NCBI GenBank assembly: GCA_011040095.1
Contig: DRDE01000314.1
Span: 1 to 43,991 of the forward strand
Reading direction: 5' to 3'
From: Nitrospirota bacterium
GTDB taxonomy: Bacteria > Nitrospirota > Thermodesulfovibrionia > UBA6902
DNA length: 43,991 nucleotides
The position numbers and the translations under genes are program-made. A model generated the notes under the pieces. It did no database searches and had not been told where the DNA came from. It saw nothing but the letters and a program-made list of their open reading frames with translations. Positions 5,182 to 8,538 of the stretch are shown piece by piece. Every line of letters begins with the position of its first letter. Positions within the stretch are counted from its first letter, which is position 1.

Positions 5182-8100
5182 TTATGAATCTATCATTTCT
5201 CCGTTTTCGTTGTTGTCTAAATCACTTTGGACGAATGTATCCTTATATTTTTCAAAACCTGTACCCGCAGGGATTAACCGCCCCATAATGACATTTTCTT
5301 TTAATCCCTTCAGGTGATCAACATCTCCTTCAATAGCCGCCTCTGTTAATATCCTGGTTGTCTCTTGAAATGACGCTGCTGATATCCAGCTATTTGCTGA
5401 CAAAGCTGCTTTAGTGATTCCAAGCAACACTGGCTGACCAACTGCCTCTTTTCCACCATCTAATGAAACAACGACATTTTCTTCGAGAAATTTACGTCTT
5501 TCTGTAATTTCTCCCATCAGAAACATAGTGTCGCCTGGAGCTGTGATCTTTATTTTTTCAGTCATTTTTCTGATGATAATTTCAAAATGCTTATCATTAA
5601 TTTTGATATTATTCGCTTTATACGTTTTTTGAAGTTCGTTCAGGAGAAATAAATGAACTTCTCTTCCCCCTTTATCGTTAAGTATTTTATGTGGGTCTAT
5701 CAAAGTTTTGTCTTTCGGCCTTCTTGCCTCAAAAAGTTCGATAATTCTGAATAAATCAATGACGGGCATTTCATCTTCTGTCTCACATCTGCCTGATCTG
5801 CGGCTGTTCAAAACAAACTGTGTTCCGGGTTCTCCTATTGACTGGGCTGCCAGGATTCCGACAGCCGTGCCTGTTTCAACTGTCCTGCCGGTTGATAAGT
5901 CCCGACCATAACATCTTGCGCATACGCCGTTTTCGGAAAGGCATGTAAGAACAGACCTTGCTCTCACCTTTTTAATGCCGGCATCGGTTATTCGTCTGGC
6001 AACGCTATTAGTAATTTCTTCGTTTAATCCCAGTATAACTTCCCCTGTTTCAGGATTCCGTATCTCCTCGGCCGATATGCGTCCTGTTATTCTGTCATCA
6101 AGCTTATGAATAATTTTTTTATTTACAACTATTTCATCTAATGTAATTCCGTCTCCTGTGGCGCAGTCTTCTTTTTGAATAATAGTGTCCTGTACCACAT
6201 CTATAAGCCTTCTTGTTAACCATCCGGCATTTGCAGTCATCATCTCTGTATCAATAATACTGTTTCTCGCTCCGGTAGATAACATAAAATATTGAACAGG
6301 TGAAAGACCTTCCTTAAAATTTGCCGTAATAGGATACTCCATAAACTTTTCCGAAGGCTTCACTATATGTCCCGGCACCATTCCGGCAAGCCTTATTAAC
6401 AGGGCAGCAGAGTTTTTTGCGCCTGAGTTGATCATCATATGAATGTTGTTCCCTTTGTCCTTCTTAAGTTCTGTCACTATTTCATTGTTTATAATTCCGG
6501 CAGCTTTTTGCCAAGTCTCTGTAACAGCATCTCTTCGCTCTTCAGTGGAAATGGTTTCATCATCTTCACTTTCATTTGCATTTATGAACCCGTATACATG
6601 CTTCTGGGCATCTTCAACTACCGCCTGTTTACATGAGGGTACACGTATATCATCCATGCTTATAGATATGCCCGATCTTGTGGCATACTCAAATCCGATC
6701 CTCATGAGACGGTCAAGGACTTCGGCTGTGTCCTGTCTGCCGAAATCGTTATGCAGGAGCATCACAATTTCTTCAAGACAGTTTTGTGTCACTGTCCGGT
6801 TTACTTTTTCAAAAGGGAACCCGCATGGGAATATATCATACAAAATGACCTTGCCTGCGGTAGTATCATGAAGACTCTCCTGTATTCTAACTTTTATCTT
6901 TGAGTGCTCATTTATAAATCCTGAATCATAAGCGTGTCTTACTTCATCGGCGCTGGAAAATACGGATGGGCAGGTCTCAGCGTCAGGCATATCAGCCGTT
7001 AAATAATAGATACCGAGAAGCATGTCCTGTGTCGGCATTGCGGCAGGTTTGCCGTTTGCAGGGTTTAAAATAGTGTTAACAGACATCATCAGCGCCCTTG
7101 CCTCTACCTGCGCCTCTATTGATAAAGGAACATGGACAGCCATCTGGTCACCGTCAAAGTCAGCATTGAATCCCTTGCATACAAGCGGGTGCAGCTTTAT
7201 CGCCTTACCCTCAACAAGTACCGGGTCAAATGCCTGCATTCCGAGACAGTGAAGAGTCGGCATTCTGTTAAGAAGCACAGGATGTTCCCTGATGACTTCA
7301 TCAAGGCAGTCCCAAATGATATCCTCTCCACGTTCAACGACTTTCTTGGCAGCTTTGATCGTGGTGACAAATCCTTTTTCTTCAAGTTTGCTGAATATGT
7401 AAGGTTTAAACATTTCAATGGCCATTTTCTTCGGCAATCCACACTGATGAAGCCGTAGTGCCGGGTCCGGCACGATGACGGACCTGCCGGAGTAGTCAAC
7501 TCTTTTACCGAGAAGGTTCTGCCTGAAGCGGCCCTCTTTACCCTTTATCATGTCGCTTAAGGACTTAAGCGGCCTCTTGGTTACTGCCTTTAGTACACGG
7601 CTCCTCCTCCCGTTGTCAAAGAGTGCGTCAACAGCTTCCTGGAGCATCCTTTTTTCATTTCTGATAATGACACTGGGGGCATTCAGTGCCATCAGTCTTT
7701 TCAAGCTGATATTTCTATTTATAACCCGTCTATAAAGATCGTTTAAATCTGAAGTGGCAAACCGTCCGCCTTCAAGCGGTACCAACGGTCGAAGGTCAGG
7801 TGGCAACACGGGAATAACGTCCATAACCATCCACTCCGGTCTGTTCCCTGATCGTCTGAATGCCTCCACAACTTTTAATCTCTTTGCAAGTTTTTCTTTC
7901 GTGGTTTTGGCATTTGTCTGTCGTATCTTTGCTCTAATGTCTTTTGCCAGAGTATCAAGGTTAATCTTTTGCAGGAGTACTTTTACCGCTTCAGCGCCAA
8001 TACCTGCCTTGAATTTATCGCCGAACTCCTGGACCCTTTTTCTGTATTCCTCACCTGTCAGAAGTTCTTTTTCTTTTAACTTTGTTTCACCGGGGTCAAC

Positions 8101-8538
8101 GACTATATAACTTTCAAAGTAAAGCACCGTTTCAAGCTGGCGCATGGTCATGTCAAGCAGTGTACCGATAATATTTTGACGACCTTTCCAGTACCATATA
8201 TGGGCAACAGGTGTGCACAGCTCTATGTGACCGAGCCTTTCACGTCTTGCCTTTGCCTGTATGACCTCAACCCCGCATTTGTCACAGACAACCCCCCTGT
8301 GTTTCATTCTCTTATATTTGCCGCATATGCATTCCCAGTCTTTGACAGGACCAAATATTTTTGCACAGAAGAGCCCATCACGTTCAGGCTTGAAAGTTCT
8401 ATAGTTTATGGTTTCCGGATTTTTTACTTCTCCATAAGACCATTCCCTTATTTTTTCAGGAGAGGCGAGGCTTATCTTAACCGCATTAAATGTCGTTAGA
8501 TTTTTGGGCTTTTCAAATATTGAGTAGATATCTTCCAT
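5182..8538 (-). CDS. rpoC: RNA polymerase beta-prime subunit paralog: orphan (no rpoB adjacent) and divergent in the trigger loop, F-loop, bridge helix and jaw
   Basis: 1118-aa ORF. N-terminus [48 protein letters not shown]; Zn ribbon [23 protein letters not shown]; catalytic [16 protein letters not shown]; C-terminal [15 protein letters not shown]...[15 protein letters not shown]. Divergences are listed in the findings. Confidence 0.9.
   Translation of the reverse strand: [1118 protein letters not shown]

Follow-up and report, generated by a model that had tools for sequence, protein, structure and literature searches.

Bacteria are, to our knowledge, taken to have a single beta-prime subunit (RpoC) of RNA polymerase (RNAP), and some actinomycetes have rifampicin-resistant second copies of rpoB. 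In E. coli, the SNF2-family ATPase RapA (HepA) is docked and activated by the zinc-binding domain of beta-prime together with the tip of the beta flap (PMC8501970). In plants, the largest subunits of Pol IV and Pol V (NRPD1 and NRPE1) keep the DFDGD motif, their trigger loops are lost or strongly modified, and they operate with the SNF2 partners CLSY and DRD1 in genome defense (PMC7714444). In this report, we describe a gene at positions 5182-8538 (minus strand) of a 43,991-nt stretch of Nitrospirota DNA (contig DRDE01000314.1 of GCA_011040095.1, analyzed as a whole and called “the window”) that encodes an accessory paralog of beta-prime. It is paired with an SNF2 gene in a small mobile cassette, which is rare and has so far been found only in a few uncultured Nitrospirota, all of them Thermodesulfovibrionia. 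A full-text literature search yielded no report of a bacterial rpoC paralog, of linkage between rpoC and an SNF2 gene, or of relevant work on RNAP and DrmD, the SNF2 helicase that belongs to class 1 of the DISARM anti-phage systems.

The pairing holds in all seven lineages that carry the gene. These are the window and six that we recovered, namely L001 and L135 (both from JGI), L002 (GCA_016213945.1), L003 (Logan), L009 (GCA_020723105.1), and L005-L008, a single lineage represented in BMS3Abin06 and three other datasets; all belong to the Thermodesulfovibrionia. Each has the same order: the paralog, two to four small or variable genes, and the SNF2 ATPase. A prior reading of the window made from its letters and open reading frames (the sequence-only reading) had called the gene stand-alone; instead, it opens a conserved cassette that the ATPase closes. 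In the window, the SNF2 gene (1-2480, minus strand) begins 2.7 kb downstream of the paralog and runs off the window start; its 826 visible amino acids include all helicase motifs and no stop. The complete SNF2 protein of L005 has 987 residues. The SNF2 partners are 63-98% identical among loci. None of 42 Thermodesulfovibrionia loci with a canonical rpoC has an SNF2 gene adjoining it, and a segmental duplication of an rpoC-SNF2 neighborhood is thereby ruled out.

The 1118-residue product, which is intact and without an internal stop, is unmistakably a beta-prime. It scores 1468 bits against the TIGR02386 rpoC equivalog model (cut-off 963.5), and all of the motifs quoted in the sequence-only reading were found. 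The protein retains the Zn ribbon, lid, rudder, clamp helices, switch 2, the catalytic NADFDGD loop for Mg2+, the second Zn site and the C-terminal clamp, the two zinc sites including the motif DC...LTC...GVCARCYG. A profile search for lost domains gave a divided answer: Pfam Rpb1 domains 1, 2, 3 and 5 match above threshold, whereas domain 4 (the funnel) scores 23.9 bits, below its gathering score of 24.8. An AlphaFold2 model is too poor for a fold search (mean predicted local distance difference test score 59; predicted template-modeling score 0.43); it predicts a long continuous helix (residues 747-782) at the position of the bridge helix and two helices (637-653 and 665-693) at that of the rim helices. 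There is no rpoB anywhere in the window, by either the list of open reading frames or profile scans. As had been noted, a 167-bp spacer (8539-8705, minus strand) and a divergent, unrelated gene lie upstream; the latter (8706-10331, plus strand) encodes 541 amino acids without a family match. The spacer, which we assign to the cassette and which has similarity to the BMS3Abin06 locus (L005), presumably contains the promoter, and a GGGGA ribosome-binding site lies directly 5' of the start codon. A scan of the cassette for promoters and terminators gave matches no more numerous than in shuffled sequence.

The host retains a normal rpoBC operon. The ENA assembly ERZ1742238 has the paralog on NODE_443 (L132; 21.6x coverage), which matches the window over 16.8 kb at 99.99% identity, and a canonical L1-L10-L7/L12-rpoB-rpoC operon on NODE_867, where rpoC encodes 1364 amino acids. 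The coverage of the latter contig (20.3x) matches that of the former, in accord with the earlier proposal that the window gene is a paralog and not the housekeeping gene. Two other paralog-bearing metagenome-assembled genomes (MAGs), JACQZF01 and DYJL01, also have rpoB-rpoC on a separate contig. A low-coverage contig (L004, 3.7x) splits the paralog and differs at its C-terminal end, as one might expect if the gene were an assembly chimera or a sequencing artifact. That explanation is nonetheless ruled out for practical purposes: the identical protein and both junctions occur in three independent assemblies (ERZ1742238, NCBI GCA_011050995.1 and Logan SRR7787496), one of them at 21.6x, and the gene order recurs in the six other lineages. 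The ENA sample contains, beside the strain with the intact paralog, a relative with a broken one (NODE_4017; L007; 10.4x). Two further MAGs, JACQZG01 (L012/L026) and CAYFYW01 (L027/L033), each have two canonical-type rpoC N-termini on different contigs; here, strain mixture or bin contamination is probably responsible, and not paralogy.

The two beta-primes of this metagenome can be aligned over their full length at 65% identity. Relative to its canonical counterpart (L136), the paralog lies outside the rpoBC operon and is missing 57 residues of the jaw, 17 residues beside the rim helices, and an SI3-like insertion in the trigger loop (18 + 164, or 182, residues) that canonical relatives carry. 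The jaw deletion agrees well with the gap of about 55 residues that had been estimated by eye. Identity to L136 is 79-91% over residues 1-500, 32-58% over 501-1000, and 64% over 1001-1100. A tally at 835 positions that are invariant in 14 canonical relatives sharpens this picture: the window protein is altered at 5-14% of such sites over residues 1-500 and at 10% in the C-terminal clamp, whereas the share is 56% for the rim helices, 44% for F-loop and bridge helix combined, and 42% for the trigger loop. The contention that damage centers on the moving parts of the catalytic machinery, with the trigger loop, F-loop and bridge helix all deviating from the canonical sequences, is thus well founded. 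A 12-residue segment departs from the canonical TQLTMRTFHIGG, and the conserved catalytic residues of bridge helix and trigger loop have not been kept. At the trigger-loop sites equivalent to E. coli M932, R933 and H936, the window protein has L, N and R. The GC content at third codon positions is 0.41 in the paralog and 0.53 in the canonical gene. Recent gene conversion from canonical rpoC as the reason for the similarity of the N-terminal part is excluded, because synonymous differences between the two genes are saturated in every region (proportion of synonymous differences, 0.7-0.8). Three other beta-prime-like proteins of about 1100 residues (P0324, P0380 and P0317) are without a jaw but have an intact trigger loop; the first two align to the paralog profile in one piece and the third in two. 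They may be canonical subunits of reduced lineages or members of further paralog families.

The regions that the paralog has kept are those with which beta-prime joins beta, omega and sigma and grips DNA, RNA and Mg2+. Those that are lost or drifting serve speed, fidelity, pausing and the access of regulators through the secondary channel. Because the parts for assembly and grip are kept while those for catalytic speed are relaxed, selection probably acts on binding or on assembly, and any synthesis would be slow at most.

A single duplication of an rpoC of the Thermodesulfovibrionia type gave rise to the paralog family, in which the trigger-loop insertion, the jaw and a portion of the rim helices were subsequently lost. 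Bootstrapping recovers the paralogs as a monophyletic group in 50 of 50 replicates for the C-terminal half and in 30 of 50 for residues 330-560; in the tree for the latter segment they nest inside canonical Thermodesulfovibrionia. Family-wide features are the jaw deletion, the loss of the trigger-loop insertion, an acidic stretch where canonical proteins have the rim-helix segment LITNGERYNKVIDIW, and 11 fixed substitutions, common to all paralogs, at sites that are invariant in canonical relatives. Pairwise identities are 59-71% among paralogs (88% for the window and L005) versus 79-96% among canonical rpoC products. The family is rare, with one to three sequences per 90% cluster among about 15 billion sequences; a search of 50%-identity representatives added only one member, P0253. 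This census is a lower bound, because two homology searches returned only fragments (P0122-P0124 and P0241), proteins of about the length of the sub-query. The pattern INDKHFE, taken from a segment thought to be peculiar to the paralogs, proved not to be specific: in a metagenome scan it also occurred in ordinary beta-prime of other phyla, and no family member was among the 80 loci listed. A sub-branch comprising L002 (residues ~404-510), L003 and P0253 has an extra helical insertion of about 100 residues between the dock region and region D, which is found neither in the window copy nor in canonical rpoC.

Eroded bridge helices and trigger loops do not characterize the family as a whole. In L009 these elements are close to canonical, as they largely are in L002 as well, and both lineages have retained Met and His in the trigger loop. 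Erosion is seen in the lineage of the window and L005 and, independently and more severely, in L001. Given these independent events, the pattern looks like relaxed constraint on catalysis and not like a newly designed catalytic center.

These observations bear on whether the paralog might be a spare beta-prime, resistant to an inhibitor, that keeps transcription going when the normal subunit is blocked by a phage shut-off protein or by a small molecule acting on the bridge helix, trigger loop or secondary channel. The T7 protein Gp2 binds the beta-prime jaw, and the elements that have been removed or changed in the paralogs are known docking sites of inhibitors and regulators. Further, L009 and L002, with their near-canonical bridge helices and trigger-loop Met and His, could be competent enzymes. 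The second rpoB of actinomycetes is similarly a core-subunit paralog that exists beside a housekeeping gene; it encodes a fully catalytically competent, resistance-linked beta, whereas the present gene encodes an eroded beta-prime and is mobile and linked to SNF2. The L, N and R in the trigger loop of the window copy and a bridge helix altered at 44% of invariant sites predict a very poor polymerase, there are no biosynthetic genes nearby, and a spare subunit would leave both the strict SNF2 linkage and the frequent gene loss unexplained. We consider this explanation decidedly unlikely.

Is the gene instead on its way to extinction? Three of the seven lineages have a disabled paralog. In L005, the closest relative of the window copy (88% identity), codon 537 has changed from TAT to TAG, one nucleotide is deleted, and NADFDGD has become HADFDGD, lesions that at least three datasets share. 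The paralog of L009 contains two frameshifts, and that of L135 a 92-residue deletion and a change of frame. The paralog could thus be a functionless rpoC copy that has yet to acquire a stop in the window, with the worn bridge helix and trigger loop as the first stage of pseudogenization. The independent erosion of catalytic elements in separate lineages fits such decay, as do the equal numbers of derived amino-acid changes on the intact window branch (49) and the broken sister branch (54). The ratio of nonsynonymous to synonymous substitution rates (dN/dS) of the paralog is also 4-7 times that of canonical rpoC: it is 0.11 between L002 and L009 and 0.19 between the window and L005, the value for the window branch being uncertain because L005 is itself broken, as compared with 0.027-0.046 for canonical rpoC and 0.10-0.13 for the SNF2 partner. 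All of these ratios are nevertheless far below 1. In 100-codon bins of the window-L005 comparison, dN/dS is 0.27-0.42 for residues 101-200 and 501-1000, but only 0.04-0.10 for residues 1-100, 201-500 and 1001-1100. Frames of 3.3-3.6 kb have stayed open in four lineages that are only 59-66% identical, and just 3-20% of canonical-invariant sites have changed over residues 1-500 and the C-terminal clamp. The synteny with SNF2 and the family-wide fixed substitutions are likewise conserved. We conclude that purifying selection on the paralog is relaxed but real, that the gene evolves several times as fast as rpoC, and that it is recurrently lost; we judge decay of a functionless duplicate to be unlikely. 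The sequence-only reading had held that the gene is not a dead pseudogene, which the open frame in three assemblies and the dN/dS values bear out. It had named stops and frameshifts in relatives as a sign of simple decay; these exist in L005, L009 and L135, while the other lineages are open. Its proposal of neo-functionalization is plausible.

The SNF2 partner has two sets of known relatives, and it is distinct from both. Among solved proteins, RapA is closest in sequence. Moreover, the zinc-binding domain that RapA uses is kept in every paralog; its Zn-ribbon motif equals the canonical consensus in four of six aligned copies (the window, L005, L002 and L009) and has substitutions in L003 and L001. 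RapA itself is not known to be encoded beside a beta-prime paralog. The partner scores only 161 bits on the RapA model NF003426 (cut-off 576), and its C-terminal region is different, with a long coiled coil. In phmmer, the match starts at about residue 145 of RapA and residue 32 of the partner, i.e., the partner is without the autoinhibitory N-terminal domain of RapA. The best family for its ATPase core is that of DISARM DrmD_b (NF038318), which matches at 649-685 bits over profile positions 22-658. These scores fall short of the equivalog cut-off (950), and the match does not extend into the last ~210 positions of the profile; NF038317 gives 264-292 bits (cut-off 610). No DrmA, DrmB, DrmC or methylase genes adjoin it in the gene tables of L001, L002, L005, L009 and L135. 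Pol IV and Pol V resemble the cassette in that each couples a largest-subunit paralog to a dedicated SWI2/SNF2 ATPase. This likeness is one of analogy, as the plant enzymes arose from an independent eukaryotic duplication and have many dedicated subunits, and the cassette is not known to have an RNA product or a silencing pathway.

The cassette is mobile, occupying different sites in syntenic genomes. In L002, a 7,964-bp block that extends exactly from the paralog to the SNF2 gene separates ABC_tran from FtsX in a macB-type operon. In L009, which is syntenic with L002, the junction of ABC_tran and FtsX is uninterrupted, and the block is found about 7 kb away, after an adh_short gene. When the window is compared with L005, similarity begins about 170 nt upstream of the paralog's ATG and is lost beyond that point. 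The block is mosaic as well: synonymous divergence (dS) between these two loci is uneven, being 0.09 for SNF2 (window 1-2417 versus L005 14420-16836) and 0.33 for the paralog (5182-8538 versus 8381-11733), and ranging from 0.045 to 0.75 per 100 codons inside the latter; this unevenness indicates recombination between cassette variants. No tRNA gene occurs in the window, and no integrase was found among the window's open reading frames scanned against Pfam or in the gene tables of the related loci. Searches by tblastn of phage and plasmid collections gave only ordinary or mislabeled chromosomal rpoC, so that a phage or plasmid origin was rejected; a paralog-specific scan of IMG/VR found nothing.

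The genes between the paralog and SNF2 vary. Across the loci they include HicAB, PemK, PIN, UPF0175/DUF3368 and DUF4238 genes and others without a known family, and they are mutually non-homologous between loci, save for a recurrent open reading frame of 83-89 amino acids. Several match defense-candidate families of PADLOC (PDC-S70, PDC-S60, PDC-S35 and DUF4238-Pers). A conserved third gene beside SNF2 was sought and ruled out, as the adjoining genes are non-homologous between loci.

We favor, with moderate confidence, the reading that the paralog is an accessory beta-prime that would still assemble or dock as beta-prime does and would work with its SNF2 motor in a genetic conflict. The paralog would replace beta-prime in a minority of core enzymes or would, at least, offer a surface like that of the RNAP clamp and zinc-binding domain. 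The resulting complex would be slow and blind to regulators. The SNF2 motor would act upon it, as E. coli RapA does via the zinc-binding domain of beta-prime; because this domain activates RapA and is kept in the paralogs, such coupling to SNF2 is a testable model. The purpose would be anti-phage or anti-mobile-element action or the element's own benefit, and not bulk transcription. It is the combination of variable toxin-antitoxin and defense-candidate cargo, a DrmD-like helicase and mobility that points to a role in conflict.

Several facts weigh against this reading. The partner falls far under the equivalog cut-offs of both RapA and DrmD and does not have the RapA N-terminal domain. PADLOC does not recognize the paralog, and the co-occurrence statistics are weak because the family is tiny. 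Since three of the seven lineages have a broken paralog beside an intact SNF2 gene, SNF2 may not need the paralog. The equal tallies of derived changes on intact and broken branches, cited above, must be added to these.

A bolder form of the idea can be drawn from the plant analogy. Here, the cassette would be a new conflict system, in which an RNAP with a swapped, catalytically down-tuned subunit and its own SNF2 motor would be the prokaryotic counterpart of Pol IV/V with CLSY/DRD1. Such a polymerase could sense or transcribe invading DNA, or could make a non-coding RNA or an R-loop that triggers the embedded toxin or defense cargo. This is possible, if on the unlikely side.

The cargo and the lesions also bear on a darker possibility, i.e., that the paralog is a dominant-negative effector. 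A crippled beta-prime would titrate beta, alpha and sigma into dead enzymes, in a manner akin to abortive infection, and SNF2 would control or reverse this effect. The determinants of assembly have indeed outlasted catalysis, the cassette lies amid toxin-antitoxin genes, and the paralog is inactivated more often than SNF2 (three cases versus one), as expected of a harmful partner. The single SNF2 case is the converse of the other three: in L003, an intact paralog lies beside an SNF2 gene (6972-9911) with an in-frame stop at codon 733, after which the same frame continues. This stop, which may be genuine or may be an error of the one Logan contig in question, is awkward for a model in which SNF2 restrains the paralog. 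Further, members with a near-canonical catalytic center would not be toxic, and no regulator or sensor is evident. We therefore think a dominant-negative role very unlikely.

The existence of such paralogs has practical consequences. Public annotation names them plainly “DNA-directed RNA polymerase subunit beta'”, a label that can mislead marker-gene phylogeny and estimates of MAG completeness and contamination. The family is also a natural experiment on which parts of RNAP serve what. We may have in the paralog the defining subunit of an alternative polymerase, or of a platform that mimics RNAP and serves a remodeling motor. Because it is strictly paired with a DrmD/RapA-like ATPase on a moving block with defense-type cargo, the proposed role in conflict is directly testable.

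In the window, the cargo between the paralog and SNF2 comprises four genes, all on the minus strand. Directly after the paralog is an antitoxin-like open reading frame of 83 amino acids (4867-5118), whose counterparts in L005 and L002 are 77-88% identical and are followed there by a HicA toxin gene. Next are a 93-residue, antitoxin-like gene of the UPF0175 family (4573-4854; Pfam PF03683 matches the same gene in L132/L133) and a DUF3368 (PIN-like) gene (4076-4573) that matches PDC-S70. The fourth (2488-4083) encodes 531 amino acids and is unrelated to the gene at the same position in other loci; its sole match, to the NCBIfam antiphage model GapS1, is sub-threshold (95 bits; cut-off 320).

On the other side of the paralog, a string of toxin-antitoxin genes (Gp49/HTH_3, UPF0175 and HicA-like; 10392-12057, minus strand) is a partial duplicate of the cargo downstream of the paralog (repeats D1, D2 and D4). 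Beyond it, a 145-nt remnant (12123-12267, minus strand), 94% identical to 5137-5281, represents the final 33 codons of another paralog copy together with 45 nt downstream, and delimits the island on its far side. In addition, the intact paralog is flanked by antitoxin-like cargo that is duplicated in three more direct repeats (88-98% identical; 4571-5281 versus 10742-11359). The string at 10392-12057 looks like the tail of an older cassette copy, and the island like two partly overlapping cassette insertions.

The two large genes without a full family match, at 8706-10331 (plus strand) and 2488-4083 (minus strand), have GC contents of 0.32 and 0.36, respectively. By eye, both products have a C-terminal D...(E/Q)xK arrangement like that of PD-(D/E)xK nucleases, and the L005 counterpart (478 amino acids) ends in RNDILH, an Rx4H, HEPN-like motif. 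To judge from these motifs, the three proteins may be defense effectors. From 12.4 kb on, the window is ordinary chromosome, with genes for Rieske/cytochrome b, a multi-heme cytochrome c, a methyl-accepting chemotaxis protein, CheA, NadE, HtrA, FtsH and a sigma-54 activator. Near its far end, in a low-GC stretch, lies a gene (41384-42481, plus strand) with HTH_3 and Peptidase_M78 domains (ImmA/IrrE-like), which may be another mobile or defense-associated regulator.

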